Below are positions 9,010 to 27,119 of a stretch of DNA of 64,000 bases, piece by piece. The notes beneath the pieces are model-generated. The model saw only the letters and a list, made by a program, of their open reading frames with translations, did not search any database and had not been told where the DNA came from. Position 1 is the first letter of the stretch. Each line of letters begins with the position of its first letter. A program made the translations under genes and the position numbers. Source of the DNA: Candidatus Cloacimonadota bacterium (lineage in GTDB: Bacteria > Cloacimonadota > Cloacimonadia > Cloacimonadales > WRIO01); assembly GCA_009777575.1 (NCBI GenBank), contig WRLO01000002.1, forward strand, positions 28,386 through 92,385, given 5' to 3'.

Positions 9010-9146
9010 ACCCTATCTTGTCATTCTGAACGAAGTGAAGAATCTCTTTGTCATTCTGAACCCTATCTTGTCATTCTGAACGAAGTGAAGAATCTCTTTG
9101 TCATTCTGAACCCTATCTTGTCATTCTGAACGAAGTGAAGAATCTC
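8997..9146. repeat. Three tandem 50-bp units containing a TGTC-tagged palindromic element
   Basis: Unit TTTGTCATTCTGAACCCTATCTTGTCATTCTGAACGAAGTGAAGAATCTC at 8997, 9047 and 9097 with no spacers; sits between convergent genes. Confidence 0.92.
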
Positions 9147-10979: not shown

Positions 10980-11030
10980 CCTATCTTGTCATTCTGAACG
11001 AAGTGAAGAATCTCCATTATCCATTACTTC
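10980..11030. repeat. 51-bp direct repeat of 9112-9162 (TGTC element plus the end of the sorting-domain gene)
   Basis: CCTATCTTGTCATTCTGAACGAAGTGAAGAATCTCCATTATCCATTACTTCA occurs at both positions. Confidence 0.9.
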
Positions 11031-14000
11031 AGCAACATCATTCTTCTCACTTGTGAAAACCCCTCCGTTCTCATCTGATAAAAATAGACACCACTGGCAA
11101 CTTCGCGACCATTTTCATCGGTTCCATGCCAGTCTATACTATGAGAACCTGCTAAAAAGAATTCATTGGTCAAAGTCCTAATTCTTTGACCACGGATATT
11201 AAAAATGTCTATCGAGACTATAGACTCTACTGCTAAATCAAAGGATATATTAGTGATAGGATTGAAAGGATTGGGGAAATTGCTCAATAGCCTTGTTTCG
11301 AGCGGAATTGTGTTTATCGGTGGTTTAGGCTCACTACATTGCAAATAACTGTATATTTGCTTCATGATAGCTTCATCCATCTTTCTATACTCTGCATAAC
11401 TCGCTGGAATGCCGACAGATGCTACTGGAAAACTCCTTTTTCCTTGTTCTGTGAGTTTCTGGATACAAAAAAGCTGAGATTTCATTGCCAATAGCCTTTC
11501 AAGCTCTCCGACTGGGTCTTGGATGATTTCTTCAAACAGCTCGATAGCCTCTTCATATTCCTCTATGAACATCTTGGTCATCGCTGTGACATGCTGTATC
11601 ACTATCGTGAGGTTCGGATGAGATATGTCGAGAAAATCAAAAAAGTCCTCTATATCAAGCTCCAAAACATTGTAAAGATGCGGCATAAGAGCGATACTAT
11701 AAATAGCATAAATTGTGTCTGGATATTCGTCAACTATGCTCTTGAATGCTAAAAGGGCTACATCGTAATCTTCCTCTTCTATTGCCTCTAATCCTCCGTC
11801 ATAAACTCCTCTTGCTGATACACCCGGTTTTTCTTCAAAATGAGCTTCTGAAAACCAAAAACAATCGCTACATGGATAAAAACGACTCAAATCTGCTTTG
11901 GACACATTTAACATTGAGACATTTATATGAGGTCGCAAAGGAGGTGTATATGATCCCATGATACGAAGTAGATAATGGTCATCACCACCAGAGTTTACTT
12001 CATCTATTGCACTTGGGCGGGTTTGATGGGTGAGAGTATTGGGAAAACTAACCCATGCATTATACATCGCAGATATCTCAGCAGAACCATTGTTCGAGAT
12101 TATTGATGGTCCAGAGATAACACTTTGCTGCTCAGATAGACTATAAAACCCGTATTCTAAGTTATCTTGTATTATTGTATCAAGGAGGTGAACGCGAGTT
12201 CCCTGCCATACTTCAAGCCCCGACCCAGCATTCTCGTTGATTTCAGCATTGTATACTCTATTCTGAAAAATTGTGTCTCGATTTAAAGACCCCCCAATAT
12301 TAAAAGATGGAGAGTTATCTATGATAAGACCGGTAGAACCATTGTCGAGGATATATAACTCATCAGCATCTATGATACTGTTTTTCAAAGTTATGCCTTT
12401 AGCGTTTTCTTCATATACGAGATTGCGAGCATACAATTTTGAATTCGATGTCAGGTATAATTCATGAATTGAGGTGATTGTGGTGTCATAAAAATTAAGA
12501 GATGATTCTATTGCATAAAAAGAACCTATATTTTCTACCATTACATCTTCAAATTTTACACTACTATTGATAAATAAAAAATTATGTATTTCTGTTATCA
12601 AATTTGATGCAATGGAACTTATTGTGAAATCATTTTCTATATTAGGTTGAGAGTCTATTATCACAAACCCATTGAATCTATTACCTGTTCTGCTCAGAAT
12701 TTCAGTCTCTTCACCTAAAATCATTCTACTATTATCTATGATGATTAAATCTTTGCGGTCAGATAAATCATTTATCTCAGTTATATCTATCAAACTACCC
12801 TCAGCAGAACCATATATTCTACTCATTCCCTCCATACTAAACAAACTATTGTTATTGAAAACGATGTTTTGAGCGTGATTCATTACTATATCGGTATCAT
12901 TTATCTCCAAACTCGAATTGTAAAAAGCTGCTGAACCATCTACTACCAACTCGATTTTTCCGTTATCTAAAATGATACTACTGTTTTGAACTAACAAGAA
13001 ACTGTTCTCACCACTGATTGAGATAGAACCATTTCCTAAATTGATTTCTGAAGATATTATTTTCAATTCTCCAAACCTGATTTGAAATCCATAAAATTTA
13101 TTCAGAGCTTGATTTTGATTTTCATTGATGATAGAGTTGGTTATAGTCAAAATAGCCTCATTATCGATGACATACATCTTGTTTATAGCAAACTCCTCAC
13201 CACTCATGATTGTGTCCTCTGTAATCCAGATCTGGTCTCCCAGTATCCTCTGCACTGGATTGAGCATATTCAATCTGCCACCAGTTATAGTACTGTCCTG
13301 CATTGCAGGGATTCGATCCACTCCATCAAGGATATATTGCTTCATGAGTAAAGCAAGTCCGCTAGGATTACCTTCATATTCATCAAGCAAATCATCAGGG
13401 GCGATTTGATAGAGTAATCCGATTAGACCTGTTACATGAGGAGCAGCCATAGAAGTGCCAGAAGATTCATAGTACCAACCAACTCCATTATAATAATTGA
13501 TTGTTGATAATATGTAATCTCCTGGTGAACCTAGATGAACTGAATTTGAGCCATAATTAGAATTAATTGCAAACTCATCTTTATTGTTTGTGGATGATAC
13601 ACTTAAAATATATTGTGATTTTATAGTAGCAGGTATCATTTTATTTTCGGGCAAATCATTATTACCAGATGAATTTCCCGCTGCTGCAATTGTCATTACT
13701 CCAGCCTGCCCCATAAGTTCAATAATATATTCCATTATATCAAGTTCATATTCTCCAAAAGAAATGAATCCAAAAGATGAATTTACAGCCACGATATATT
13801 CTCCGCCCTGAATGAATATATCATTGTAATCGAGTCTTTGTTCTAACACATATTGATATGCCATAATTACCCAAAAGACTGTCCCCCATCCTCTATCCAT
13901 TGGAAGCCCAAATGAAATTGGCATCATTGTAACCACAGGTAATATTTTTATATTCCTTGCTATTCCTGATATTCCCAGATTATTGTTACTAATAGCTCCT

Positions 14001-14614
14001 GCTATCCCTGCCACATGAGTGCCATGCGAGCCAATATATAAAGAATCGTTACTTGTTATTACATTCCATCCTTTATACCAATTTATATCTGGATGATTTG
14101 GTGCATATCCATTATCAGCTATGGCTAAAACTACATCGTTGTCAAAAATTATTTCTTGTTGAAATAAACTTAAAAGTTCCCAGACATATTGAAAACTAAT
14201 GTCAGCATTAGATAAACCTTTTATATCATTTACTATCTGACTAGTATTTTTTAATGCCCATTGATCTGGATATAATGGGTCATTAGGATAGTTTCCAAGA
14301 CTCTCTATATAATAATTAAATTGGGCAAGGTGAACATTTGGGTCTTGTCTCATCCTTTCAAGAATATCATCGTCTGATATCAAATTTTGGTTGTAATAAA
14401 AAAGATGAGTATTAAAACGTTCTGAATATCTGTGACTTTCGTCAATTACTAATTCAAATTGAGAATATGACGAAATAAAATTTATTAGATCATCACCTCT
14501 GGTGTTGTTGTTTAAATCAAGGATAATTTGCCCTGGTATACTATTTGATGAACTCAAACAGTATATCAAAACCGACAAAAACAATAAAAAATTAAATTTT
14601 TTACAAAAAATCAT
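11024..14614 (-). CDS. Secreted S8 (subtilisin-like) serine peptidase with beta-helix-like region, TPR-like helices and C-terminal sorting domain
   Basis: Catalytic triad motifs IADNG, HGTHVAG and SGTSMAAPHV; NFPNPFNP..ASGVYFYQM..MMLLK tail; GGAGG RBS. Confidence 0.9.
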   Translation of the reverse strand: MIFCKKFNFLLFLSVLIYCLSSSNSIPGQIILDLNNNTRGDDLINFISSYSQFELVIDESHRYSERFNTHLFYYNQNLISDDDILERMRQDPNVHLAQFNYYIESLGNYPNDPLYPDQWALKNTSQIVNDIKGLSNADISFQYVWELLSLFQQEIIFDNDVVLAIADNGYAPNHPDINWYKGWNVITSNDSLYIGSHGTHVAGIAGAISNNNLGISGIARNIKILPVVTMMPISFGLPMDRGWGTVFWVIMAYQYVLEQRLDYNDIFIQGGEYIVAVNSSFGFISFGEYELDIMEYIIELMGQAGVMTIAAAGNSSGNNDLPENKMIPATIKSQYILSVSSTNNKDEFAINSNYGSNSVHLGSPGDYILSTINYYNGVGWYYESSGTSMAAPHVTGLIGLLYQIAPDDLLDEYEGNPSGLALLMKQYILDGVDRIPAMQDSTITGGRLNMLNPVQRILGDQIWITEDTIMSGEEFAINKMYVIDNEAILTITNSIINENQNQALNKFYGFQIRFGELKIISSEINLGNGSISISGENSFLLVQNSSIILDNGKIELVVDGSAAFYNSSLEINDTDIVMNHAQNIVFNNNSLFSMEGMSRIYGSAEGSLIDITEINDLSDRKDLIIIDNSRMILGEETEILSRTGNRFNGFVIIDSQPNIENDFTISSIASNLITEIHNFLFINSSVKFEDVMVENIGSFYAIESSLNFYDTTITSIHELYLTSNSKLYARNLVYEENAKGITLKNSIIDADELYILDNGSTGLIIDNSPSFNIGGSLNRDTIFQNRVYNAEINENAGSGLEVWQGTRVHLLDTIIQDNLEYGFYSLSEQQSVISGPSIISNNGSAEISAMYNAWVSFPNTLTHQTRPSAIDEVNSGGDDHYLLRIMGSYTPPLRPHINVSMLNVSKADLSRFYPCSDCFWFSEAHFEEKPGVSARGVYDGGLEAIEEEDYDVALLAFKSIVDEYPDTIYAIYSIALMPHLYNVLELDIEDFFDFLDISHPNLTIVIQHVTAMTKMFIEEYEEAIELFEEIIQDPVGELERLLAMKSQLFCIQKLTEQGKRSFPVASVGIPASYAEYRKMDEAIMKQIYSYLQCSEPKPPINTIPLETRLLSNFPNPFNPITNISFDLAVESIVSIDIFNIRGQRIRTLTNEFFLAGSHSIDWHGTDENGREVASGVYFYQMRTEGFSQVRRMMLLK

Positions 14615-14652: not shown

Positions 14653-16722
14653 TTATCTTAGCAGGATCATTCTTCTTGTTTCATTATAGTCTTCTGTCAC
14701 CATTGTATAGAAATAAATACCACTACTCACTCTGAGATTTGAACTATCTACTCCAGTCCAAAATATCTCATATTTTCCAGCTGGTAAAAGATTATTTATC
14801 AATGTTATTATTCTCTGACCTCTTATGTTGAATATTTCTATTGAGACAAATCCATTTCGAGCAAGGGAAAAATTTATCGTTGTTTGTGGATTGAAAGGAT
14901 TCGGAAAATTTCCCAAAAGCAATGTCGTATAAGAGATGATTTCGTCATTTTCATCGCTAGTTTCAGGTTTTGCTATAACTATATTTGATGGCTCAGACTC
15001 TCCATCTATCTCTCCACCCCATATTGCAGTGACATGATATTCGTAATAAATATCATTCTCCAATCCGATATCGGAATACTCTTTATATGGGCTTAATATT
15101 ACATCTATTTTTTTATCATCTCGAAAAACATTGTATCCAATCACAGTTCCATATTTTTGAGTATTGGGGATTTCCCATGATAGATTTACTACTCCATCAC
15201 CGGCAATAGCTTGCAGATTCAATGGTGGACTAAATAATGGCATTATGATTGATGTTCCCGCCGATCCAAATTCACCATCATCATAATATGCTATTATCCA
15301 ATAAGAATATTTTGTATCTGTATCCAGATTAAGATCAATGTAATTCATATCTGTTGTTTGATTTACAAATATGTGATTTCGATAAAGTATAAATCCATTT
15401 AAACTTGCCTGAATATTGCTGTCGTAATTAATAGAAAAATCAGATTTGAGCCATGTTAATACTACATCATGGTCTAAAATTTTTCCTGTAAAATCGACTG
15501 GCGCTTTTCTCTTGTTATCCATACTCCGTAAAAAAGGATAACCATTATTGAGTCTTTCGTCTATCCACCATATATTTTCTAAATCCCAATCATTATTTAT
15601 AAAAGTAGAATTTTGTTTCATTTCTAAAGTAGTTAATCCGAAATTATTATTTATTGTATGGTTCTGCCCTTCTACTAAATTAAATGGTTCTAAAACTCCT
15701 GTAGTTTCAGTATTCCAAAAATTATGTCTGATATTTGAGGGATTTTGAGAAGAACTTATTCGACCGATAAGCCCACTTATATTTTGAAAGTCTGTATAAG
15801 ATACTACATAACAAAACTGGACATCTGATAATGACATTGAGCCGATTAATCCTCCATTCCTTTCTCTTTCTATAGAGCTAAAAATATCTCCATAAAAAAA
15901 TGAATTTTTCAATGTGGTTTGTCCGGTATAGCCTATTATTCCACCTAAAGATGATGTTTCACTCATGAAATCATAAATAGTTACTTTTGAATAACAATAC
16001 TCTATATGAGACCTTTGAGCATTCCCCACCAGGCTACCAACAATTGAAGTAATAGATATTTCTGGATATGACGTTCCTACTAAAAGTTCTCCAGAAACTT
16101 TACAATTTTCTATTTTGCTTTCAAATGCGCATCCAACTAAAACGCCTATATATGATTGGTAGGTTCTATTTTCTTCCAATTTAACGGTTGCATTTTCTAC
16201 TCTGAGATTTTTTATTGTAGCAAAATCTAAATAACCAAATAAAGCTGGGTGAACAATGGCAGGAATATCAAAATAACCTTCATGATAATATAATTCATCA
16301 GGGGTATTGATATGCAAATTGCTTATTTTATGATAATCTCCGTCATATATACCTAAAAATGATAACACTTTTGCATTCATTGTTGCTACCTCAAAATAAT
16401 TGCCTATCGGATGAAATCCCTTGCCTTCATTCCAGTTTATAGTCTCAGAAGCATCTATGTCAGCTGTTTGCAAGAAATAATATCTATATACCTCCCAATT
16501 ATTATCTAGTAAAGCAAAACCCCACACATCAGGTGTCTCTGACAACCACCTCAAATTCGCCAGATTCGCTATTAAAAAAGGGGTTTCTTCTGACCCTGCG
16601 TTTTCCTCATGAAAATTTGAGGGTGGTTCTGCAAGGGTTTCGGTGTGTAAAGAAAACAAACTAACACAAAAAAACATTGCGATTAATAACACAAAAAAAA
16701 CATTTTTTCTGTCTATTCTCAT
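14653..16722 (-). CDS. Secreted GLUG-repeat/FN3 protein with C-terminal sorting domain (cassette C)
   Basis: GSEETPFLIANLANL, FLQTADID, YDG, G(G/S)LVG repeats, PPLNL..VNLSW FN3, NFPNPFNP tail. Confidence 0.85.
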   Translation of the reverse strand: MRIDRKNVFFVLLIAMFFCVSLFSLHTETLAEPPSNFHEENAGSEETPFLIANLANLRWLSETPDVWGFALLDNNWEVYRYYFLQTADIDASETINWNEGKGFHPIGNYFEVATMNAKVLSFLGIYDGDYHKISNLHINTPDELYYHEGYFDIPAIVHPALFGYLDFATIKNLRVENATVKLEENRTYQSYIGVLVGCAFESKIENCKVSGELLVGTSYPEISITSIVGSLVGNAQRSHIEYCYSKVTIYDFMSETSSLGGIIGYTGQTTLKNSFFYGDIFSSIERERNGGLIGSMSLSDVQFCYVVSYTDFQNISGLIGRISSSQNPSNIRHNFWNTETTGVLEPFNLVEGQNHTINNNFGLTTLEMKQNSTFINNDWDLENIWWIDERLNNGYPFLRSMDNKRKAPVDFTGKILDHDVVLTWLKSDFSINYDSNIQASLNGFILYRNHIFVNQTTDMNYIDLNLDTDTKYSYWIIAYYDDGEFGSAGTSIIMPLFSPPLNLQAIAGDGVVNLSWEIPNTQKYGTVIGYNVFRDDKKIDVILSPYKEYSDIGLENDIYYEYHVTAIWGGEIDGESEPSNIVIAKPETSDENDEIISYTTLLLGNFPNPFNPQTTINFSLARNGFVSIEIFNIRGQRIITLINNLLPAGKYEIFWTGVDSSNLRVSSGIYFYTMVTEDYNETRRMILLR

Positions 16723-16856
16723 TTCTCCTCCAAATTTGAGTCAATTTTGAAACTCATTTTTTAACTTTAAGGTATATTTTTTTATTTTTACTATTTTTGT
16801 CAACAATTATTTTATTTTTATTTTTCAGATATTTTTTTGAATAATTTTAAATAAGA
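16723..16856 (-). promoter_or_regulatory. Conserved intergenic leader repeated before all five GLUG genes (also 19245-19373, 21564-21697, 24098-24226, 26417-about 26535)
   Basis: Minus strand: TTGACA (TCGACA in one copy), A-rich spacer, TATACC, TGAGT-N10-ACTCA, GGAGG RBS, ATG. Confidence 0.7.
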
Positions 16857-19244
16857 TTATTTCAACAATACCATCCTTCTCACGGTAGTAAAATCTCCAG
16901 CTCTCATCACATAAAAATACAACCCGCTTCCGACATCGCGACCATATTCGTCCTCTCCATTCCACAATACTTGATGAAATCCTACATTCATGCTCTCATT
17001 CAACAGATTCCTAACTCTTTGTCCACGAATATTGTATATATCAATCGAAACGATTGATTCTACGGCGATATTAAACTTTATTATAGTCTCAGGATTAAAT
17101 GGATTAGGAAAATTACCTATCAATTCTGTTATCAAGGGTATCTCAATATCTTCAAACTCTGACGCATAAACTTCTATTTCAACAGAAACATGCTCTGATT
17201 CACCACCGTTGTAAACAGCACTTACACTATAGACATATTCCCCAACAGGCACATAAGCTTGTATATATCTATAATTTGACAATCCTGATGCTTGGCGAAA
17301 AGTAAGAAATTCTTCGTTACGATAGATATTATAACCTTTCAGGCTTTCTACTTCAGAGACATTCCTTTTAACTGAATTGTTTATTCTCCTTGAGGTTCTA
17401 TTTTCACCATCATGATTTTCTCTATAAGGTGGTTTCCAGTTTATTATCACTGTATTCCCATTTACACTACTGACACTACCTTCCAATTCTGTAGGTGGTA
17501 GCATCATAAAATCCAAAACTATATTCACAATATTTGTAGGCTCAGATACCCCTTCTATCGCACCACCCCATACTGCTGTGATATAATATTCATGTTCATC
17601 ACCGTTTTTTAAACCTTTATCTATGTATTCAATTTGCCACCCTTTATAAGGGAGGGATAATACCTCATCTATCAACACCCCGTCCCTATAAATATTATAT
17701 CTTAATAATTCACCATATTTTTGCACATCTGAAGATTCCCAAGATAAAGTCACCTCTCCATCACCTGCCCAAGCCACTAAATTTTTTGGTGGACTATAAA
17801 CAACCGTGATGATAGACAAATCAGTCGCTCCAAAATCTCCATCCTCATAAAGAGCTATCAAGAAATAATTGTATTTCTCATCCAGCTCTATGTCTGTATC
17901 AATATAAGATAATTCGGTTGTTTCTACTAAAAATACATCGTTTCGATATAATCTGTAATTGATGGAGGATTTGTAAAATTGTCCAAAGCTTTGATGGAAA
18001 CCATTATCCATTTCATTGCCAGGCTCCTCCCATGTCAAAACTATGTCACCATCCACTATCTCTGCATTAAAATTCCCTGGCGATTTTCTCGCATCTATCA
18101 TACTTCTCAGATACGGATATCCACTATTTATATAGGGTTTCATAAACCATATATTCTCAAAGTCCCATCCATTGTCAATATATGTGGATTTTTGTTTCAT
18201 CTCTTCGGTTGTTTTTCCAAAATTATCGATCACTGTTCCATGTCCTATCTCTACATTAAAGAGCTGAGATACACCAGTAGTCTCCTCATCCCAAAGATTG
18301 TTTGTGATGATGGAAACTCCCCATGTATGATGAATTTCCCCAATAAAGCTATTAATATTAGTAAATATAACATCTGAAACCACATAACAATTACTGATTC
18401 TTGAACGACTAGCGTATCCTACAAGTCCACCATTACTATCTCTTTCGATTGAGCTGTTAATGAAACCATTAAAATATGAATTTTCTATTGTAGTATTACT
18501 AGATCCACCAACAAGTCCACCTGTTATATTACTATAGTTTGTAGCGTCTATAATTATAAAAGATGAATAATTATTTCTTATGGTTGAATTTATAGCATTA
18601 CCCACTAAACCTCCTGCAATCGTCCAAGATGCCCCAATCATTTGTCCAGTAACAGAGACATTTTCTATTAATCCACCTTGAATAATTCCAGCCAAAGGAC
18701 CAACTTCATTGTATAGCAAATCTTCATTAGGTAAAATACTTACATTATCTAGTCGTAGATTTTTTATTGTGCCACCTAGTATTACTCCAAACATGCCAGG
18801 GACAGGAACACAATAAATTACAATATTGTGTGGACAGTTAATAAATAAATTTTTTATAGAATACCCATTTCCATCATAAACTCCCATGAAACCCTTATCA
18901 TTACCTGCAGAACCAGTCAGATTTCTTACTCCTATAGGTCTAAAACCACAACCATCTTCCCAATAGATAGTCTCTGTAGCATCAATATCTGCAGTTTGCA
19001 AAAAATGATACCATAAAAAATTACTACCTGATACCCATTCACACCACACATCAGGCGTCTCCGACAACCATCTCAGATTCGCCAGATTCGCTATTAAAAA
19101 AGGATTTTCTTCTGACCCTGCGTTATCATCATGAAAATTTGAGGGTGGTTCGGCAAGGGTTTCGGTGTGTAAAGAAAACAAACTAACACAAAAAAACATT
19201 GCGATTACTAACACAAAAAAAACATTTTTTCTGTCTATTCTCAT
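16857..19244 (-). CDS. Secreted GLUG-repeat/FN3 protein with C-terminal sorting domain (cassette A)
   Basis: Same architecture with three FN3-like units; paralog of 21698-24097. Confidence 0.87.
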   Translation of the reverse strand: MRIDRKNVFFVLVIAMFFCVSLFSLHTETLAEPPSNFHDDNAGSEENPFLIANLANLRWLSETPDVWCEWVSGSNFLWYHFLQTADIDATETIYWEDGCGFRPIGVRNLTGSAGNDKGFMGVYDGNGYSIKNLFINCPHNIVIYCVPVPGMFGVILGGTIKNLRLDNVSILPNEDLLYNEVGPLAGIIQGGLIENVSVTGQMIGASWTIAGGLVGNAINSTIRNNYSSFIIIDATNYSNITGGLVGGSSNTTIENSYFNGFINSSIERDSNGGLVGYASRSRISNCYVVSDVIFTNINSFIGEIHHTWGVSIITNNLWDEETTGVSQLFNVEIGHGTVIDNFGKTTEEMKQKSTYIDNGWDFENIWFMKPYINSGYPYLRSMIDARKSPGNFNAEIVDGDIVLTWEEPGNEMDNGFHQSFGQFYKSSINYRLYRNDVFLVETTELSYIDTDIELDEKYNYFLIALYEDGDFGATDLSIITVVYSPPKNLVAWAGDGEVTLSWESSDVQKYGELLRYNIYRDGVLIDEVLSLPYKGWQIEYIDKGLKNGDEHEYYITAVWGGAIEGVSEPTNIVNIVLDFMMLPPTELEGSVSSVNGNTVIINWKPPYRENHDGENRTSRRINNSVKRNVSEVESLKGYNIYRNEEFLTFRQASGLSNYRYIQAYVPVGEYVYSVSAVYNGGESEHVSVEIEVYASEFEDIEIPLITELIGNFPNPFNPETIIKFNIAVESIVSIDIYNIRGQRVRNLLNESMNVGFHQVLWNGEDEYGRDVGSGLYFYVMRAGDFTTVRRMVLLK

Positions 19245-21541
19245 TTCTCCTCCAAATTTGAGTCAACTCTGAAACTCATTTTTTTAACCTTATGGTATAT
19301 TTTTTATTTTATATTTTTTGTCAACAATTTTTTTTTCTTAATTTTCAAATATTTTCTAATAATTTAAATAAAATTATTTCAACAATACCATCCTTCTCAC
19401 AGTAGTAAAATCTCCAGTCCTCATCACATAAAAATACAACCCGCTTCCGACATCGCGACCATATTCATCCTCTCCATTCCACAATACTTGATGAAATCCA
19501 GCTTTCATGCTCTCATTCAACAGATTCCTAACTCTTTGTCCACGAATATTGTATATATCAATCGAAACTATTGAATCTATGGCGACATTAAACCTAATCA
19601 TAGTCTCAGGATTGAAAGGATTAGGAAAATTGCCTACCAATTCTGTCATCAAGGGTACCTCAATATCTTCAAACTCTGATGCATAAACTTCTATTTTTAC
19701 TGAAACATGCTCTGATTCACCACCGTTGTAAACAGCACTTACACTATAGACATATTCCCCAACAGGCAAATCATGTTCTATGAACGATGTTTCTGAAGTG
19801 CTTAGCTCTGTCAATGGCATTTCATCTCGATAGATGTAATATCCTATTGGATAACTATCTGGTGCCATCCAATTTAATGTAACAGAGTAATTATCTACAC
19901 TACCAACAAGATCTGTCGGAGGAAGAATATCCTCTAAGAGTATCATTTTCACAGTATTCGAGGGTTCAGACTCCCCTTCAGGATTTTCATACAAAGCTGT
20001 GATAACATAATTATATTCGACATAGTATTCTACATCCTCATCTAAATAAAAAAGGGTTTCTAATGGTAATAAATCAGATAAAACCTCACCTTCCCTATAA
20101 ACTATATATCCTAAAATATCTCCAAAATTTGCTTTTTGAGGTGCTTTCCATGTCAGAAATATATCATTACCCACAATTGATGCATCTAAATCCTTGGGTG
20201 AATAAAATGCTGGGATATAGATATTAATAATATCTGCTCCTAAATCTCCGCTTTCATAGACTGCAAAAAGAAAATATGTATACTTCGTATCAACATCGGC
20301 ACTAACATCAGTAAAAGATAAATCTGAAGTTTCTGTCAATAATATACCGTTGCGATACAGTTTGAAACCTATAAAATTTGATTTTATCTGAGAGCTATGA
20401 AATGAATTATAACTCAAATTCCAAGTGAGTTTGATATTATTGTCTATTATTTCTGCAATTAGATTCATCGTTGGCAAAGAAATGTTTTTTGTTTCTCGAA
20501 AAAAAGGATACCCGTCATTGATTTCGGGGTGTATATACCATACATGTTCAAAGTCCCAACCATTTTCTATATACATAGTGACTCGTCTCATTTCTTGTGT
20601 AGTTTTTCCAAAATTATTTTCTATTGTATGTTCAGAGCCTTGTATCTCATTGAAAGGATTTAAAATTCCCGTAGATTCTATATTCCAAAAATTGTTTGAG
20701 ACCGTAGAAGAAGGTTCAATGGTTATTTTTCCTATTAATCCACCTACATTATTCATTTCTAAATTACTCGAGACATAAGAATAGGAAACTACCGAGTTCT
20801 GCATACTACCAACCAATCCGCCATATTCAATAGCTTCAGAATCAGAAACGATATTTCCCAAAAAAAAGGAATTCGTTATTGACGAACTTACAATACCAGC
20901 CGCTATCCCCCCTACAGTCGAGGGATAAGTGGGAAGAAATTCATTATTAACAAAAATGTTTCCACTTACAAAACAATTAATTATGGATGAACTACCCGCT
21001 GATGCAACTAAACCTCCAAAAAAATGTGAGTCGAGTCCAGAAATTATAGCATTGATATCTTGTAAATATACATTTTTTACAGTAGATTCGTATATAAGAC
21101 CAAAAAGTGTTGAATTTAAAACCATAGAAGGTATTTCATCTTCATTATATTGATTTACATAGAGATTGTTAATAGAAAAATGATTACCATCATACTCTCC
21201 TATGAATAATCTTAAAGTAGGGCTTGAGCGGCCTATTGGCACAAATCCAATTCCACCATGCCAAACTTTTGTTTCAGATGCATCAATATCAGCAGTTTGA
21301 AGAAAATAGTTCTTTCCTAAAACAATTAACTCTCCAGTAATCAGATCAAATGTGAAGTCTCCCCAAACAGAACGAGTCTCCGACAACCACCTCAAATTTG
21401 CCAGATTTGCTATTAAAAAAGGATTTTCTTCTGACCCTGCATTTTCTTCATGAAAATTTGAGGGTGGTTCGGCAAGGGTTTCGGTGTGTAAGGAAAACAA
21501 TCCCACATAAAAGACCATTGCGATTACAAACACAAAAAAAA
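18809..21541. repeat. About 2.7-kb direct repeat, copy 1 (copy 2 at 23662-26394)
   Basis: Constant offset of 4853 for the gene starts, the B/B' stop and the shadow ORFs; identical wherever compared; first mismatches at 18808 and 21542. Confidence 0.9.
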
Positions 21542-21563
21542 AATTTTTTCTGTCTATTCTCAT
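19374..21563 (-). CDS. Secreted GLUG-repeat/FN3 protein with C-terminal sorting domain (cassette B)
   Basis: Same architecture; differs from 24227-26416 only at residue 8 (F vs I). Confidence 0.87.
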   Translation of the reverse strand: MRIDRKNFFFVFVIAMVFYVGLFSLHTETLAEPPSNFHEENAGSEENPFLIANLANLRWLSETRSVWGDFTFDLITGELIVLGKNYFLQTADIDASETKVWHGGIGFVPIGRSSPTLRLFIGEYDGNHFSINNLYVNQYNEDEIPSMVLNSTLFGLIYESTVKNVYLQDINAIISGLDSHFFGGLVASAGSSSIINCFVSGNIFVNNEFLPTYPSTVGGIAAGIVSSSITNSFFLGNIVSDSEAIEYGGLVGSMQNSVVSYSYVSSNLEMNNVGGLIGKITIEPSSTVSNNFWNIESTGILNPFNEIQGSEHTIENNFGKTTQEMRRVTMYIENGWDFEHVWYIHPEINDGYPFFRETKNISLPTMNLIAEIIDNNIKLTWNLSYNSFHSSQIKSNFIGFKLYRNGILLTETSDLSFTDVSADVDTKYTYFLFAVYESGDLGADIINIYIPAFYSPKDLDASIVGNDIFLTWKAPQKANFGDILGYIVYREGEVLSDLLPLETLFYLDEDVEYYVEYNYVITALYENPEGESEPSNTVKMILLEDILPPTDLVGSVDNYSVTLNWMAPDSYPIGYYIYRDEMPLTELSTSETSFIEHDLPVGEYVYSVSAVYNGGESEHVSVKIEVYASEFEDIEVPLMTELVGNFPNPFNPETMIRFNVAIDSIVSIDIYNIRGQRVRNLLNESMKAGFHQVLWNGEDEYGRDVGSGLYFYVMRTGDFTTVRRMVLLK

Positions 21564-21697
21564 TTCTCCTCCAAATTTGAGTCAACTCTGAAACTCATTT
21601 TTTCACCTTATGGTATATTTTTTTATTTTTTCTTTTTTTGTCGACAAATATTTTATTTTTATTTTTCAGATATTTTTTTGAATAATTTTAAATAAGA

Positions 21698-24097
21698 TTA
21701 TTTCAACAATACCATCCTTCTCACGGTAGTAAAATCTCCAGCTCTCATCACATAAAAATACATCCCACTTCCGACATCGCGACCATACTCATCCTCTCCA
21801 TTCCACAATACTTGATGAAATCCAGCTTTCATACTCTCATTCAACAGATTCCTAACTCTTTGTCCACGAATATTGTATATATCAATCGAAACTATAGATT
21901 CTACAGCGATATTAAACTTAATCATAGTCTCAGGATTGAAAGGATTAGGAAAATTGCCTACCAATTCTGTCATCAAGGGTACCTCAATATCTTCAAACTC
22001 TGACGCATAAACTTCTATTTCAACAGAAACATACTCAGATTCACCACCGTTGTAAACAGCACTTACACTATAGACATATTCCCCAACAGGCACATAAGAT
22101 TGTATATATCTATAATTTGACAATCCTGATGCTTGGCAAAAGAAAAGAAAATCTTCATCACGATAGATATTATATCCTTTCAGGCTTTCTACTTCAGAGA
22201 CATTTCTTTTAACTGAATTGTTTATTCTCCTTGAGGTTCTATTTTCACCATCATGATTTTCACTATAAGGTGGTTTCCAGTTTATTATCACTGTATTCCC
22301 ATTGACATTACTAACACTACCTTCCAATTCTGTAGGTGGTAACATCATAAAATCCAAAACTATATTCACAATATTTGTAGGCTCAGATACACCATCTATC
22401 TCGCCACCCCATACTGCTGTGATATAATATTCATGTTCATCACCGTTTTTTAAACCTTTATCTATGTATTCAATTTGCCTCGCTTTGTAAGGCGGGGATA
22501 ATACCTCATCTATCAATACTCCATCCCTATAAATATTATACCTTAATACTTCACCATATTTTTGCACATCTGAAGATTCCCAAGATAAAGTTACCTCTCC
22601 ATCACCTGCCCAAGCTACTAAATTTTTTGGTGGACTATAAACAACCGTGATGATAGACAAATCAGTCGCTCCAAAATCTCCATCCTCATAAAGAGCTATC
22701 AAGAAATAATTGTATTTCTCATCCAACTCTATGTCTGTATCTATATAAGATAATTCGGTTGTTTCTACTAAAAATACATCATTTCGATATATTCTGTAAT
22801 TGATGGAGGATTTGTATAATTGTCCAAAGTTTTGATGGAAACCATTATCCATTTCATTGCCAGGCTCCTCCCATGTCAAAACTATGTCACCATCCACTAT
22901 CTCTGCATTAAAATTCCCTGGCGTTTTTCTCGCATCTATCATACTTCTCAGATACGGATACCCATTGTTTATAAAAGGTTTCATAAACCATATATTCTCA
23001 AAATCCCAACCATTATCAATATAGGTCGTAGCTTGTTTCATCTCTGCTGTTGTTTTTCCATAATTACCACTCACAGTGCCTTGCCCTGTCTCTACATTAA
23101 ATAGTTGTGTTATACCAGTAGTCTCCTCATCCCAAAGATTATTTGTGATGATAGATGGAAATCCTGTTGGGTTAGGGTGTGAAATCCATCCAATAAAGCT
23201 ATTAATGTTTATAAATGAATCTTCTGAAACTACATAACAATTACGGATCCTTGATTCGCTGGCTCTTCCTACAAGACCACCATATCCATCGCTTTCAATT
23301 GAGCTGTTAATGAAACCATTAAAATATGAATTTTCAATTGTAGAATTATATAAATAACCTACAAGCCCACCTATTCTAATACTATGACTTGTAGCATCAA
23401 TAATAAATAAAGATGAATAACTATTTCTTATCGTTGTATGTGATGCATCTCCAGCTAAACCTCCTGTTAATCTTGAGGATGCTTCTATAACCATTTGCCC
23501 AGTAACAGAGACATTTTCAATTAATCCACCTTGAATTATTCCCGCTAAAGGTCCGACTTGATTATAATGCAAATCTTCATTAGGTAATATATTTACATTT
23601 TCCAGTCTTAGATTTTTAATAGTGCCATTTTGTATTACACCAAACATGCCAGGGACTGGGGCACAATAAATTACAATATTGTGTGGACAGTTAATAAATA
23701 AATTTTTTATAGAATACCCATTTCCATCATAAACTCCCATGAAACCCTTATCATTACCTGCAGAACCAGTCAGATTTCTTACTCCTATAGGTCTAAAACC
23801 ACAACCATCTTCCCAATAGATAGTCTCTGTAGCATCAATATCTGCAGTTTGCAAAAAATGATACCATAAAAAATTACTACCTGATACCCATTCACACCAC
23901 ACATCAGGCGTCTCCGACAACCATCTCAGATTCGCCAGATTCGCTATTAAAAAAGGATTTTCTTCTGACCCTGCGTTATCATCATGAAAATTTGAGGGTG
24001 GTTCGGCAAGGGTTTCGGTGTGTAAAGAAAACAAACTAACACAAAAAAACATTGCGATTACTAACACAAAAAAAACATTTTTTCTGTCTATTCTCAT
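21698..24097 (-). CDS. Secreted GLUG-repeat/FN3 protein with C-terminal sorting domain (cassette A')
   Basis: First 145 aa identical to cassette A, then a divergent GLUG core. Confidence 0.87.
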   Translation of the reverse strand: MRIDRKNVFFVLVIAMFFCVSLFSLHTETLAEPPSNFHDDNAGSEENPFLIANLANLRWLSETPDVWCEWVSGSNFLWYHFLQTADIDATETIYWEDGCGFRPIGVRNLTGSAGNDKGFMGVYDGNGYSIKNLFINCPHNIVIYCAPVPGMFGVIQNGTIKNLRLENVNILPNEDLHYNQVGPLAGIIQGGLIENVSVTGQMVIEASSRLTGGLAGDASHTTIRNSYSSLFIIDATSHSIRIGGLVGYLYNSTIENSYFNGFINSSIESDGYGGLVGRASESRIRNCYVVSEDSFININSFIGWISHPNPTGFPSIITNNLWDEETTGITQLFNVETGQGTVSGNYGKTTAEMKQATTYIDNGWDFENIWFMKPFINNGYPYLRSMIDARKTPGNFNAEIVDGDIVLTWEEPGNEMDNGFHQNFGQLYKSSINYRIYRNDVFLVETTELSYIDTDIELDEKYNYFLIALYEDGDFGATDLSIITVVYSPPKNLVAWAGDGEVTLSWESSDVQKYGEVLRYNIYRDGVLIDEVLSPPYKARQIEYIDKGLKNGDEHEYYITAVWGGEIDGVSEPTNIVNIVLDFMMLPPTELEGSVSNVNGNTVIINWKPPYSENHDGENRTSRRINNSVKRNVSEVESLKGYNIYRDEDFLFFCQASGLSNYRYIQSYVPVGEYVYSVSAVYNGGESEYVSVEIEVYASEFEDIEVPLMTELVGNFPNPFNPETMIKFNIAVESIVSIDIYNIRGQRVRNLLNESMKAGFHQVLWNGEDEYGRDVGSGMYFYVMRAGDFTTVRRMVLLK

Positions 24098-26394
24098 TTC
24101 TCCTCCAAATTTGAGTCAACTCTGAAACTCATTTTTTTAACCTTATGGTATATTTTTTATTTTATATTTTTTGTCAACAATTTTTTTTTCTTAATTTTCA
24201 AATATTTTCTAATAATTTAAATAAAATTATTTCAACAATACCATCCTTCTCACAGTAGTAAAATCTCCAGTCCTCATCACATAAAAATACAACCCGCTTC
24301 CGACATCGCGACCATATTCATCCTCTCCATTCCACAATACTTGATGAAATCCAGCTTTCATGCTCTCATTCAACAGATTCCTAACTCTTTGTCCACGAAT
24401 ATTGTATATATCAATCGAAACTATTGAATCTATGGCGACATTAAACCTAATCATAGTCTCAGGATTGAAAGGATTAGGAAAATTGCCTACCAATTCTGTC
24501 ATCAAGGGTACCTCAATATCTTCAAACTCTGATGCATAAACTTCTATTTTTACTGAAACATGCTCTGATTCACCACCGTTGTAAACAGCACTTACACTAT
24601 AGACATATTCCCCAACAGGCAAATCATGTTCTATGAACGATGTTTCTGAAGTGCTTAGCTCTGTCAATGGCATTTCATCTCGATAGATGTAATATCCTAT
24701 TGGATAACTATCTGGTGCCATCCAATTTAATGTAACAGAGTAATTATCTACACTACCAACAAGATCTGTCGGAGGAAGAATATCCTCTAAGAGTATCATT
24801 TTCACAGTATTCGAGGGTTCAGACTCCCCTTCAGGATTTTCATACAAAGCTGTGATAACATAATTATATTCGACATAGTATTCTACATCCTCATCTAAAT
24901 AAAAAAGGGTTTCTAATGGTAATAAATCAGATAAAACCTCACCTTCCCTATAAACTATATATCCTAAAATATCTCCAAAATTTGCTTTTTGAGGTGCTTT
25001 CCATGTCAGAAATATATCATTACCCACAATTGATGCATCTAAATCCTTGGGTGAATAAAATGCTGGGATATAGATATTAATAATATCTGCTCCTAAATCT
25101 CCGCTTTCATAGACTGCAAAAAGAAAATATGTATACTTCGTATCAACATCGGCACTAACATCAGTAAAAGATAAATCTGAAGTTTCTGTCAATAATATAC
25201 CGTTGCGATACAGTTTGAAACCTATAAAATTTGATTTTATCTGAGAGCTATGAAATGAATTATAACTCAAATTCCAAGTGAGTTTGATATTATTGTCTAT
25301 TATTTCTGCAATTAGATTCATCGTTGGCAAAGAAATGTTTTTTGTTTCTCGAAAAAAAGGATACCCGTCATTGATTTCGGGGTGTATATACCATACATGT
25401 TCAAAGTCCCAACCATTTTCTATATACATAGTGACTCGTCTCATTTCTTGTGTAGTTTTTCCAAAATTATTTTCTATTGTATGTTCAGAGCCTTGTATCT
25501 CATTGAAAGGATTTAAAATTCCCGTAGATTCTATATTCCAAAAATTGTTTGAGACCGTAGAAGAAGGTTCAATGGTTATTTTTCCTATTAATCCACCTAC
25601 ATTATTCATTTCTAAATTACTCGAGACATAAGAATAGGAAACTACCGAGTTCTGCATACTACCAACCAATCCGCCATATTCAATAGCTTCAGAATCAGAA
25701 ACGATATTTCCCAAAAAAAAGGAATTCGTTATTGACGAACTTACAATACCAGCCGCTATCCCCCCTACAGTCGAGGGATAAGTGGGAAGAAATTCATTAT
25801 TAACAAAAATGTTTCCACTTACAAAACAATTAATTATGGATGAACTACCCGCTGATGCAACTAAACCTCCAAAAAAATGTGAGTCGAGTCCAGAAATTAT
25901 AGCATTGATATCTTGTAAATATACATTTTTTACAGTAGATTCGTATATAAGACCAAAAAGTGTTGAATTTAAAACCATAGAAGGTATTTCATCTTCATTA
26001 TATTGATTTACATAGAGATTGTTAATAGAAAAATGATTACCATCATACTCTCCTATGAATAATCTTAAAGTAGGGCTTGAGCGGCCTATTGGCACAAATC
26101 CAATTCCACCATGCCAAACTTTTGTTTCAGATGCATCAATATCAGCAGTTTGAAGAAAATAGTTCTTTCCTAAAACAATTAACTCTCCAGTAATCAGATC
26201 AAATGTGAAGTCTCCCCAAACAGAACGAGTCTCCGACAACCACCTCAAATTTGCCAGATTTGCTATTAAAAAAGGATTTTCTTCTGACCCTGCATTTTCT
26301 TCATGAAAATTTGAGGGTGGTTCGGCAAGGGTTTCGGTGTGTAAGGAAAACAATCCCACATAAAAGACCATTGCGATTACAAACACAAAAAAAA
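23662..26394. repeat. About 2.7-kb direct repeat, copy 2
   Basis: Matches 18809-21541. Confidence 0.9.
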
Positions 26395-26416
26395 TATTTT
26401 TTCTGTCTATTCTCAT
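24227..26416 (-). CDS. Secreted GLUG-repeat/FN3 protein with C-terminal sorting domain (cassette B')
   Basis: Near-exact copy of cassette B at offset 4853. Confidence 0.87.
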   Translation of the reverse strand: MRIDRKNIFFVFVIAMVFYVGLFSLHTETLAEPPSNFHEENAGSEENPFLIANLANLRWLSETRSVWGDFTFDLITGELIVLGKNYFLQTADIDASETKVWHGGIGFVPIGRSSPTLRLFIGEYDGNHFSINNLYVNQYNEDEIPSMVLNSTLFGLIYESTVKNVYLQDINAIISGLDSHFFGGLVASAGSSSIINCFVSGNIFVNNEFLPTYPSTVGGIAAGIVSSSITNSFFLGNIVSDSEAIEYGGLVGSMQNSVVSYSYVSSNLEMNNVGGLIGKITIEPSSTVSNNFWNIESTGILNPFNEIQGSEHTIENNFGKTTQEMRRVTMYIENGWDFEHVWYIHPEINDGYPFFRETKNISLPTMNLIAEIIDNNIKLTWNLSYNSFHSSQIKSNFIGFKLYRNGILLTETSDLSFTDVSADVDTKYTYFLFAVYESGDLGADIINIYIPAFYSPKDLDASIVGNDIFLTWKAPQKANFGDILGYIVYREGEVLSDLLPLETLFYLDEDVEYYVEYNYVITALYENPEGESEPSNTVKMILLEDILPPTDLVGSVDNYSVTLNWMAPDSYPIGYYIYRDEMPLTELSTSETSFIEHDLPVGEYVYSVSAVYNGGESEHVSVKIEVYASEFEDIEVPLMTELVGNFPNPFNPETMIRFNVAIDSIVSIDIYNIRGQRVRNLLNESMKAGFHQVLWNGEDEYGRDVGSGLYFYVMRTGDFTTVRRMVLLK

Positions 26417-26765
26417 TTCTCCTCCAAATTTGAGTCAACTCTGAAACTCATTTTTTCACCTTATGGTATATTTTTTTATTTTTACTTTTTTTGTCAACAA
26501 TTATTTTATTTTTTATTTTTCAAATATTTTTGGATAATTTTTATAGCTTATTGCATAAGCCTAATCTCATTGTGTCTTGAGAATTATACGAAAACAACTC
26601 CTATCATCGCTAAAATTGTACCGTTAATTTGAGATATATCAGAGATGGTATCAATGATATACTCCGTAGGAGTCGTGGTTTGGTAGAAAAAGTGACGCCC
26701 CCCACCAACCATCTTTATTCCGTTAGGATCCGTCTCCGAAAAATATATTTTCACAAAATCATACT

Positions 26766-26903
26766 TTACATACCCCGAAGGGGTCGGTTCAAGAGCTATT
26801 CGGGGTGGGAGATGTAGTGGTAATCGTTTTCTCATGAGGTAATTCTGCGAGCTATTCGGTATAACCTCATATCTCTTGAACCGATCACCTTCGGGATGTG
26901 TAA
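26766..26903. mobile_element. 138-bp MITE-like or structured element with about 30-bp imperfect terminal inverted repeats
   Basis: Arms 26766-26795 and 26873-26903 match at 27 of 31 aligned positions; internal hairpin ATGAGGT/ACCTCAT; ACCCC-GAA-GGGGT hairpin within the left arm. Confidence 0.5.
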
Positions 26904-26960
26904 GGAATATCAATAGTTAAGAATCGACTTTTCGGCGAGGACTCATTGACGACGGCAGTC

Positions 26961-27098
26961 TGAGACCCCATATTTGTAGTGGCGTATTGCTTACGCCTTA
27001 TTTTCGATGAGACCCCATATTTGTAGTGGCGTATTGCTTACGCCTTATTTTCGATGAGAATACAAGCGTTATAGAAGGCGTAAGCAATACGCCACTAC
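26961..27098. repeat. GTAG-tagged REP cluster, family 3 (two tandem 47-bp units plus an inverted copy; REPIN/BIME-like)
   Basis: GTAG-T-GGCGTA-TTGCT-TACGCC at 26976-26997 and 27023-27044; reverse copy at 27077-27098. Confidence 0.85.
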
Positions 27099-27119
27099 GA
27101 TTTTAGATGAGGATTAGTA

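Follow-up and report, generated by a model that had tools for sequence, protein, structure and literature searches.

Homogenised ends and divergent cores in a tandem array of GLUG protein genes from a Cloacimonadota bacterium

Five neighbouring genes in the genome of a Candidatus Cloacimonadota bacterium encode products that are closely alike at both ends and strongly divergent in between. The question raised by this locus is whether such a layout represents a dedicated repertoire of constant-variable-constant cassettes, as an initial annotation had proposed, or a more ordinary outcome of gene-family evolution. The Cloacimonadota are an uncultured phylum for which, to our knowledge, there are almost no functional data. 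The DNA analysed, referred to here as the window, is a stretch of 64,000 nucleotides, and the source genome is a MAG of 198 contigs, of short-read style. The reading favoured below, and considered probable, is a lineage-specific tandem expansion within a family of T9SS surface proteins, shaped by ordinary concerted evolution and involving no programmed cassette switching.

Array layout and protein architecture

Open reading frame calls in the window place five intact, co-directional genes on the minus strand between positions 14653 and 26416 (Table 1), each of them complete and equipped with a separate leader, ribosome-binding site and ATG start. The five tandem units of the initial annotation were recovered as a count, but not as five distinct units: only three gene types are present, A (g1), B (g2 and g4) and C (g3 and g5), and a two-gene C+B unit is duplicated with a period of 4,853 bp. 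The proteins encoded by g3 and g5 differ at a single residue (F8 versus I8).

Table 1 Features of the array and its surroundings (window positions)
Feature	Position	Strand	Description
g1, type A	14653..16722	-	689 aa; signal peptide, GLUG beta-helix, 2 FN3, divergent T9SS CTD
g2, type B	16857..19244	-	795 aa; GLUG beta-helix, 3 FN3, CTD
g3, type C	19374..21563	-	729 aa; T10 tract at codons 8-10
g4, type B'	21698..24097	-	799 aa; 90% identical to g2
g5, type C	24227..26416	-	729 aa
leader1	16723..16856	-	134 nt; TTGACA box, A-rich spacer, GGAGGAG ribosome-binding site
leader2	19245..19373	-	129 nt; identical to leader4
leader3	21564..21697	-	134 nt; duplication junction
leader4	24098..24226	-	129 nt
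leader5	26417..26535	-	adjoins unique upstream DNA
Identical tract, copy 1	23662..26394	-	g5 from codon 9, leader4, first ~435 nt of g4
Identical tract, copy 2	18809..21541	-	g3 from codon 9, leader2, first ~435 nt of g2; offset 4,853 bp
g4 divergent GLUG core	22984..23661	-	72-86% nt identity to g2; dS 0.64, dN/dS 0.23
g2 divergent GLUG core	18143..18808	-	counterpart of g4 core; lower bound approximate
3' homogenised tract of g2	16857..17252	-	end of last FN3 + CTD, last 131 codons
3' homogenised tract counterparts	19374-19769 (g3), 21698-22093 (g4), 24227-24622 (g5)	-	last 131 codons
S8 peptidase with beta-helix + CTD	11024..14614	-	neighbouring T9SS cargo, outside the repeat family
SprA-like T9SS translocon gene	47568..53816	+	SprA_N 1.8e-29; 2,082 aa

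The leaders between the genes measure 134, 129, 134 and 129 nt, with at least 120 nt upstream of g5, in agreement with the conserved leader of about 130 bp per unit described initially. They have a mean column identity of 86%, a TTGACA box and an invariant GGAGGAG ribosome-binding site. An Rfam scan for structured leader RNA returned one chance match, a palindromic repeat outside the array, and leader folding z-scores of -1.5 to -2.5 were unremarkable. A promoter and terminator scan gave 78 matches against 66 expected, which is uninformative in AT-rich DNA, and a search of the array mRNA strand for a 3'UTR element complementary to the leader (an anti-SD match) found none.

Pfam searches identified Glug (PF07581) above its cut-off of 20.5 bits in all five proteins (49.4, 39.3, 24.3, 49.9 and 24.3 bits), together with fn3 and Por_Secre_tail/FlgD_ig. 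The sorting domain of type A T9SS cargo is described by TIGR04183 and PF18962; the NCBIfam model, TIGR04183 (cut-off 23 bits), was scanned against three proteins and matched g1, g2 and g3 with 34.1, 31.5 and 31.9 bits, respectively. An AF2 model of g1 (pLDDT 87.5) comprises a signal helix at residues 5-25, a cap helix at residues 54-62, a predicted beta-helix at about residues 69-400 with pLDDT above 90, two FN3 domains and a CTD that forms a beta-sandwich. The helix at residues 5-25 is hydrophobic and is followed by SLHTET, and the N-terminus is predicted to be a Sec signal peptide with a putative cleavage site.

The GLUG repeat beta-helix resembles the N-terminal beta-helix of the Streptococcus IgA1 proteases (PDB 6xjb, 7uvk and 7uvl), and the family profile matched chains 6xjb and 7uvk with E-values of 2e-17 to 1e-15. 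Unlike those proteases, the array proteins have no M26 protease domain, and they would be anchored through a T9SS CTD and not LPXTG. A Foldseek search with the whole model returned generic beta-helix/L-domain and FN3 receptors (e.g. the insulin receptor) with TM-scores below 0.25 and gave no functional lead. A T9SS has been reported for the Cloacimonadota (PMC11285876). The domain architecture and the SprA-like translocon gene in the window point to display at the cell surface, where the proteins most likely act in binding, as adhesins whose beta-helices would differ in specificity.

The GLUG family has about 35 members in this genome. A homologue on another contig, P0005, is a singleton gene without an array. 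The shared first 60 or so residues noted initially were found in all five proteins, but the mature N-terminal motif within them, ETLAEPPSNF..NPFLIANLANLRWLSET, is kept across the whole family and is not specific to the array. The constant N-terminus is thus in part a family-wide structural cap maintained by selection. Only the leader and the signal peptide, MRIDRKN, set the array apart from the rest of the family.

Identity at the ends and in the middle of the genes

Residues 1-66 are 82-100% identical among the five proteins, whereas the middle, comprising the GLUG core and the FN3 units, is only 26-53% identical between types. The last 131 or so residues are 88-100% identical among g2-g5, and those of g1 are only 42-54% identical to them, so that the divergent middle and the related sorting domain, near-identical in four copies, are as first described. 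Between types, nucleotide identity is 88.7-93.6% at the 5' end (85 nt of leader and 198 nt of coding sequence) and 54.6-57.0% in the middle; types B and C share 93.7-94.9% identity over the 3' 396 nt.

One explanation for this profile is selection only: the export signals (promoter, signal peptide and CTD) would have been preserved after old duplications, with no recombination. The signal peptide, the N-cap motif and the CTD are indeed functional elements, and the N-cap motif is conserved family-wide. However, the synonymous sites are conserved as well. dS was 0.16-0.38 for codons 1-66 and 0.15-0.18 for the last 131 codons (B versus C), compared with 1.1-2.9 for the core and FN3 regions. Where two genes encode the same residue, codon identity was 81-92% over codons 1-66 and, for B versus C, 90% over the last 131 codons; in the middle it was 47-53% (P values of 1e-5 to 1e-15 against the ends). 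The segment FLQTADID, which is conserved and lies next to the N-terminal tract, has saturated dS and illustrates the signature left by selection acting on its own. Profile scores mark the CTD of g1 as functional, although its DNA is only about 53% identical to the other CTDs, and the 3' homogenised tract begins within an FN3 domain instead of coinciding with the edge of the CTD. The contrast between low dS and high codon identity at the ends and a saturated middle indicates that the shared ends are recombinational and not due to selection alone, which makes an account by selection only very improbable.

Recombination also left its mark within the tail, where the last 140 codons contain interleaved site patterns that group g2 with g4 (24 sites), g4 with g3 (13 sites) and g2 with g3 (8 sites). 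A recombination check on the aligned paralogs, proposed initially, thus yielded both a tract-wise drop in dS with sharp boundaries and conflicting site patterns in the tail.

Comparison of the two B genes revealed three layers of divergence, with dS of 0, 0.64 and 0.15. The differences between the g2 and g4 cores lie at third codon positions in 74 of 136 cases (54%) and are symmetric in base type; the g2 bases at these sites are A 44, T 46, G 25 and C 21, with no adenine bias. Together with the dS and dN/dS values of the cores (Table 1), the lack of adenine bias marks them as an older layer and not a product of hypermutation. DGR-like or otherwise targeted hypermutation was rejected, there being neither an adenine bias nor an RT gene in the flanks. 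Diversifying selection on the core was unsupported when these two sequences were compared segment by segment, dN/dS being 0.04-0.55 in every segment. The B cores are each other's closest relatives and are under purifying selection.

The duplicated unit and the reliability of its assembly

A tract of 2,733 bp is perfectly identical between the duplicated units. At the junction of the units, the first 49 nt of leader3 equal those of leader1 exactly, and its 3' part resembles leader5 with three private changes, including TTGACA to TCGACA; such a chimera is the pattern expected of unequal crossing-over.

Other assemblies bear on how far this arrangement can be trusted. Exact matches to the g1 and g5 proteins occur in two other assemblies, on three contigs in all; look-ups of g2, g3 and g4 gave no match. 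An ENA contig assembled with MEGAHIT (L003) carries the exact g5 protein, runs unbroken from unique upstream DNA into the identical tract and ends exactly at 23662. The contigs L001 and L002, from the other assemblies, differ from the window in that a g4-type tail is joined directly to leader1 and g1; the assignment of this tail is supported by 52 of 52 discriminating sites in L001 and by all 19 sites covered in L002. This join reflects a deletion haplotype or else wrong phasing, and it makes uncertain which core belongs with which tail in the two B copies. Double use of one segment of the assembly graph may partly account for the complete lack of differences between the copies of the 2.7-kb tract. 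Only one public run contained the stretch, and its contigs, at 2-4x depth, hold both g2- and g4-specific core pieces and cover neither junction; a junction-specific search of public runs found nothing. Short-read assemblies break at members of this family, so the numbers of genes and the alleles called from MAGs need caution at such loci.

These observations leave room for an assembly artefact, in which the true locus is a three-gene C-B-A array in two co-occurring strains, carrying g2 and g4 as alleles, that was strung into a false tandem duplication. In its favour are the fragmentation of the MAG, an identical tract longer than a short-read span, the way in which L003 enters this tract from unique DNA and stops at its end, and the g4-type tail next to g1 in L001 and L002. 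Against it, leader3 exists as assembled: its leader1-like 5' part follows a B-type stop codon, and its leader5-like 3' part, with the private changes, precedes a C-type gene whose F8 codon is private. At the join, leader1 and a leader5-type sequence have no exact word in common longer than about 12 nt, which would not let any assembler jump from one to the other, so the B-then-C adjacency must exist in real molecules; given this and the C-then-B adjacency, a duplication is required. The MAG also contains no alternative-haplotype contigs. An artefact of this kind is accordingly thought unlikely.

Scans of metagenome and genome contigs returned only distant relatives, with 27-51% identity. By its Rho homologues, the genome belongs to the Cloacimonadota. 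In relatives whose Rho is 95%, 90% and 82% identical, the Rho-U32-SPOR block is retained and other genes follow SPOR, and the array is therefore lineage-specific at this site.

Under the favoured account of tandem expansion and concerted evolution, an ancestral C-B-A array would have had its C+B unit duplicated through unequal crossing-over within the leaders. Repeated homology-driven gene conversion among the genes, to which the footprints point and which is presumably RecA-dependent, would then have kept alike the leader and first 66 codons of all five genes and the last 131 or so codons of g2-g5. The most recent conversion would be that of the 2.7-kb tract, which covers all of the C gene and the beginning of the B gene, while the beta-helix cores and FN3 regions would continue to diverge under purifying selection. 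The constant-variable-constant appearance would then have three sources: common descent of the genes, concerted evolution of their ends, and the constraint that function places on export signals. The part of the initial proposal that homologous recombination acted on the shared ends is borne out by the dS contrast, the patchwork tail, the chimeric leader3, the 2,733-bp identical tract and the joins of a g4-type tail to g1.

Cassettes, switching and comparison with known systems

No recombinase, integrase or RT gene occurs in the gene lists over about positions 4600-36400 of the window, i.e. within about 10 kb of the array, as had been observed initially. A tblastn search of the contig for partial or promoterless donor cassettes found none, and no case was found of one core borne on different ends. 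With all copies being complete genes, the proposal of a dedicated cassette repertoire was not upheld. A high-low-high identity profile was also found in pairs of family members on other contigs (C60/C17, C182/C73, C19/C134 and a C25 pair); its recurrence in unlinked members makes the mosaic look like a passive by-product of homology.

The same footprints at both ends, and the recurrence of the mosaic between unlinked genes, would also be expected of a contingency locus. Here the constant ends would serve as recombination handles, cores would be amplified, deleted or exchanged at a useful frequency, homopolymers would switch copies, and the population would vary in its adhesins. Codons 8-10 contain a T8 tract in every gene except g3, where it is T10, and the sole difference between g3 and g5 lies at the tract edge; the A-tract between the TTGACA box and the start varies in length among the leaders. 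The junction of a g4 tail with g1 in two other assemblies is what a repeat-to-repeat deletion would give. On the other side, silent cassettes, a dedicated recombinase and cores on different ends were not found in the searches above; T8 runs are common in this genome of 34% GC (0.5 per kb); identical runs of 109 and 114 nt could have misled the phasing and produced the alternative junction; and the reads are too thin to show variation in length or structure. A contingency locus is considered quite unlikely. The same low expectation applies to a wider version, in which the whole GLUG family would be a set of exchangeable modules, with end handles kept by conversion, copies added or deleted by crossing-over and switched by slippage in the T8-T10 and A-tracts, all without a dedicated recombinase. 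We know of no recombination-plus-phase-variation contingency system of this kind for surface adhesins in the Cloacimonadota. The mosaic design may nonetheless carry a selected benefit.

Among known systems, the babA/babB/babC, sabA/sabB and homA/homB genes of Helicobacter pylori are complete, separately expressed paralogs of outer-membrane adhesins with near-identical 5' and 3' ends and divergent middles, and what maintains the bab pattern is gene conversion of the homology-driven, RecA type, neither a dedicated recombinase nor silent cassettes being involved. The array resembles bab in its complete genes, alike ends, divergent middles and, probably, homology-driven conversion. It differs in being tandem where the bab loci are dispersed, and in encoding T9SS cargo with a beta-helix where the Hop porins are autotransporter-like; conversion of bab during infection has been shown experimentally, whereas here sequence footprints point to it. 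In Porphyromonas gingivalis, rgpA, kgp and hagA encode T9SS cargo with near-identical adhesin modules shared by recombination. As at the present locus, T9SS type A cargo genes of one genome share long, almost identical segments; theirs are internal haemagglutinin/adhesin domains of dispersed genes, whereas here the shared parts are the leader and signal end and the last FN3 and CTD end of tandem genes. Neisseria pilE/pilS, Borrelia vlsE and Anaplasma msp2 have one expression site, many promoterless silent cassettes and unidirectional segmental conversion. They share with the array constant ends around a variable centre and the movement of sequence between copies by recombination, but the copies in the array are all full genes, and no silent cassettes accompany them on the contig.

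The locus thus reveals no new mechanism, recombined ends being a well-known route in the evolution of surface-protein families. It is a clean, quantified case from the Cloacimonadota in which tandem genes for T9SS surface proteins evolve in concert at both ends, and the homogenised part includes the non-coding leader.

The presence of about 35 GLUG beta-helix genes in this termite-gut bacterium parallels the gain of GLUG proteins by the cockroach-gut archaeon Methanimicrococcus blatticola, for which a role in adhesion has been proposed (PMC9723798). In both, the GLUG family is expanded in a microbe of the insect hindgut. This parallel hints that GLUG proteins may matter for life in that habitat, for instance by letting the cells adhere to fibre, to cuticle or to partner cells.

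Array layout and encoded proteins

All five units described for the array in the initial annotation are present as intact ORFs for predicted secreted GLUG/FN3 proteins (g1 to g5), running in the same direction. They represent three types only, however: A (g1), B (g2 and g4, 90% identical) and C (g3 and g5, which differ at one residue), with an overall identity of 45–53% between types. The leaders between the ORFs are 134, 129, 134 and 129 nt long, a related leader also lies upstream of g5, and alignment of the five gave a mean column identity of 86%. Common to the leaders are a TTGTTGACA box (TCGACA in leader3, upstream of g3), an A-rich spacer and an invariant last 35 nt with GGAGGAGAA at its end, directly 5' of the ATG. 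Each leader also contains a conserved 12-codon upstream ORF (ATGAGTTTCAGAGTTGACTCAAATTTGGAGGAGAAATGA, MSFRVDSNLEEK), preceded by AAGGT in four of the five, whose TGA stop overlaps the main ATG (ATGA); this may be a coupled leader peptide or a coincidence.

Coordinates of the array and associated features in the window
Feature	Position	Strand	Description
Array	14653-26416	minus	five intact ORFs
g1	14653-16722	minus	689 aa
g2	16857-19244	minus	795 aa
g3	19374-21563	minus	729 aa
g4	21698-24097	minus	799 aa
g5	24227-26416	minus	729 aa
Homopolymer tract, g1	16693-16700		T8, coding strand
Homopolymer tract, g2	19215-19222		T8, coding strand
Homopolymer tract, g3	21534-21543		T10, coding strand
Homopolymer tract, g4	24068-24075		T8, coding strand
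Homopolymer tract, g5	26387-26394		T8, coding strand
Leader upstream ORF (examples)	16723-16757; 19245-19279; 26417-26451	minus	12 codons
Tract identical between C+B units	26394-23662 and 21541-18809		2,733 bp
REP-like repeat cluster	26773-27100		palindromic
ORF overlapping REP-like cluster	26584-26913		overlap 26773-26913
Tandem repeat	8996-9146		50-nt unit, 3.0 copies
SprA_N protein	47568-53816	plus	2,082 aa

Pfam searches placed Glug above threshold in all five proteins and also matched fn3 and Por_Secre_tail/FlgD_ig. The proteins scanned with NCBIfam (g1, g2 and g3) carry a T9SS type A sorting domain according to TIGR04183, with scores of 31–34 bits against a cut-off of 23. An AlphaFold2 model of g1, built with 81 homologues as input (mean pLDDT 87.5), predicted a signal helix (residues 5-25), a cap helix (54-62) and a right-handed beta-helix (about 69-400), followed by two FN3 domains and a beta-sandwich C-terminal sorting domain (CTD). 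The family profile matched the beta-helical N-terminal region of streptococcal IgA1 proteases (6xjb, 7uvl and 7uvk; E 2e-17 to 1e-15) and also the PorU CTD, and Foldseek with the whole g1 model returned generic beta-helix plus FN3 receptors and nothing else. Fifteen GLUG proteins have been gained by a cockroach-gut archaeon, with a proposed role in adhesion (PMC9723798).

Two further T9SS cargo genes follow the array, one encoding an S8 peptidase and the other a CarboxypepD_reg protein. The gene for a SprA_N protein (1.8e-29), likely the T9SS translocon, lies at a distance of about 21 kb from the array; T9SS has already been reported for the phylum Cloacimonadota (PMC11285876). The MAG consists of 198 contigs (3.76 Mb, 34% GC), and the named best matches of the window's Rho are exclusively Cloacimonadota/Cloacimonetes.

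Shared ends and divergent cores

Between types, dS was 0.16-0.38 over codons 1-66 and 1.1-2.9 over the core and FN3 regions, and the last 131 codons gave 0.15-0.18 for B versus C. Just downstream of the 5' tract, the residues of the motif FLQTADID..PIG are conserved and dS is saturated, so that it serves as an internal example of conservation through selection alone. At positions encoding the same residue, the share of identical codons was 81-92% for the N tract and 90-91% for the C tract, but 47-53% for the middle region (Fisher P 1e-5 to 1e-8 and about 1e-15). These three lines of evidence point to recombination for the constant ends. DNA identity was 88.7-93.6% at the 5' end (85 nt of leader plus 198 nt of CDS), 54.6-57.0% in the middle and 93.7-94.9% over the 3' 396 nt for B versus C; the g1 tail shares 52-55% with the other tails, yet forms a valid CTD. 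Informative sites in the tails are interleaved (g2=g4 at 24, g4=g3 at 13, g2=g3 at 8), and eight of the g4=g3 sites run consecutively. The 3' tract starts within the last FN3 domain, off any domain border, which together with the other tract evidence argues that the ends were homogenised, apparently in several separate episodes of gene conversion or crossing-over. Homologous recombination at the shared ends, as first suggested, is thus upheld by low dS, codon identity and the interleaved tail sites.

The g2/g4 core gave dS 0.64 and dN 0.15 (dN/dS 0.23, and 0.04-0.55 across all 30-codon windows), with 74 of 136 differences at third codon positions. It represents an older layer of divergence between younger converted layers (5' dS 0, 3' dS 0.15). 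Targeted hypermutation or a DGR was rejected for this core on its low dN/dS, its symmetric base spectrum and the absence of adenine bias. No closer relative of either core was found among the family members in the MAG, and hence there is no sign of core import from elsewhere in the MAG.

The C+B duplication across assemblies

At the DNA level, a two-gene C+B unit is duplicated, the copies being offset by 4,853 bp. The perfectly identical tract starts at codon 9 of the C gene, takes in the leader that follows and ends near nt 435 of the B gene; beyond it come about 680 bp at 72-86% (the g2/g4 GLUG core) and a remainder at 89-98%. Leader3, at the duplication junction, consists of 49 nt of leader1 and thereafter leader5, plus three private changes, a structure expected from unequal crossing-over inside leaders.

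The duplication could also have arisen in assembly, by stringing two strains together. An ENA contig (L003, MEGAHIT) is 100% identical to 36416-23662 and stops exactly where the identical tract stops, and perfect identity over 2.7 kb may be overstated if the assembler reused one graph segment. A purely artefactual duplication is unlikely, since leader3 as assembled implies that a C-type gene follows a B-type gene in genuine molecules, and the exact match common to both sides of its join is only about 12 nt. The only public run with this stretch, a termite gut metagenome, has 2-4x depth, and its contigs span neither junction.

Two further contigs (L001, JGI; L002, ENA) match the window at 100% identity from leader1 on, but the gene fragment upstream of leader1 has a g4-type tail (52/52 discriminating sites in L001; all 19 covered sites in L002). 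This junction could reflect a genuine three-gene haplotype, g5-g4-g1, as deletion between direct repeats would yield, or a phasing error, made possible by two stretches (109 and 114 nt) over which g2 and g4 do not differ, the 109-nt one containing the start of L001.

The same junction is among the observations favouring a contingency locus, together with the T8-T10 tract at codons 8-10 of every gene and the variation of A-tracts in the leaders; we regard this as improbable. The single coding change that separates g3 from g5 falls at the edge of the homopolymer tract, and in leaders 2 and 4 an A9 run lies immediately 5' of the TTGACA box. Both kinds of tract are possible slippage sites.

Outside the array, a perfect tandem repeat (unit CTTTGTCATTCTGAACCCTATCTTGTCATTCTGAACGAAGTGAAGAATCT) apparently has one extra copy in L001, as the two alignments of that contig are offset by 50 nt; the repeat is thus variable in copy number between assemblies.

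Origin of the array and the wider GLUG family

The array is probably a tandem expansion of putative T9SS-displayed beta-helix adhesins, in which duplication and unequal crossing-over would have added units, recurrent gene conversion would have acted on the gene ends, and the cores would have diverged under purifying selection. The closest known analogues we take to be the H. pylori bab/sab/hom adhesin paralogs and the P. gingivalis rgpA/kgp/hagA modules. The constant-variable-constant cassette repertoire initially proposed was not supported as a dedicated system. Tests for the hallmarks of programmed cassette variation found no lone expression site served by silent donors among the five genes and on the MAG contig, and neither an RT in the array flanks nor A-biased variation in the g2/g4 core differences. 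Gene lists spanning about 4600-36400 contained no recombinase, integrase or RT, in agreement with the initial annotation.

Contigs of relatives whose Rho is 95%, 90% and 82% identical keep the Rho-peptidase U32-SPOR block, and no GLUG array follows SPOR, the upstream neighbour of the array, on these contigs, which argues that the array expanded recently, in this lineage only, at a point where synteny breaks. After SPOR (window about 27120), the relatives' loci (L010-L013) carry an M28 peptidase-CTD gene and an MmeI-type restriction enzyme, or sigma-70, or MutS/FliD. The DNA after SPOR thus differs by lineage in related termite-gut Cloacimonadota, as a synteny breakpoint or variable region. Between SPOR and the array, directly upstream of the latter, lies a hairpin-forming REP-like cluster (three copies of 24-nt arms, GTAGTGGCGTATTGCTTACGCCTT) with relatives at 81-93% identity on at least nine other MAG contigs; the ORF overlapping it has no Pfam match.

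Searching the MAG with an HMM built on the N-terminal and core region identified 35 family ORFs, several cut at contig ends. Most carry the mature N-terminal motif ETLAEPPSNF..NPFLIANLANLRWLSET, modelled as a helix cap; features unique to the array are confined to the leader and the MRIDRKN signal peptide, and other GLUG subfamilies each have their own common signal peptide. High identity at the 5' and 3' ends around a low-identity core also occurs in several pairs across contigs: C60/C17 (5' 87-92%, core 44-52%, 3' 93-96%), C182/C73 (96-100%, 38-53%, 80-90%), and likewise C19/C134 and the C25 pair. The mosaic thus characterises the family at large and is not peculiar to this locus. Many short contigs (C19, C32, C122, C134, C180, C168, C197, C182) start or stop within GLUG-family genes, which makes the family a main cause of assembly breaks in the MAG; its true size is probably underestimated. 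Within subfamilies, near-identical 5' ends recur across contigs, for example MTLKRHLL on four.
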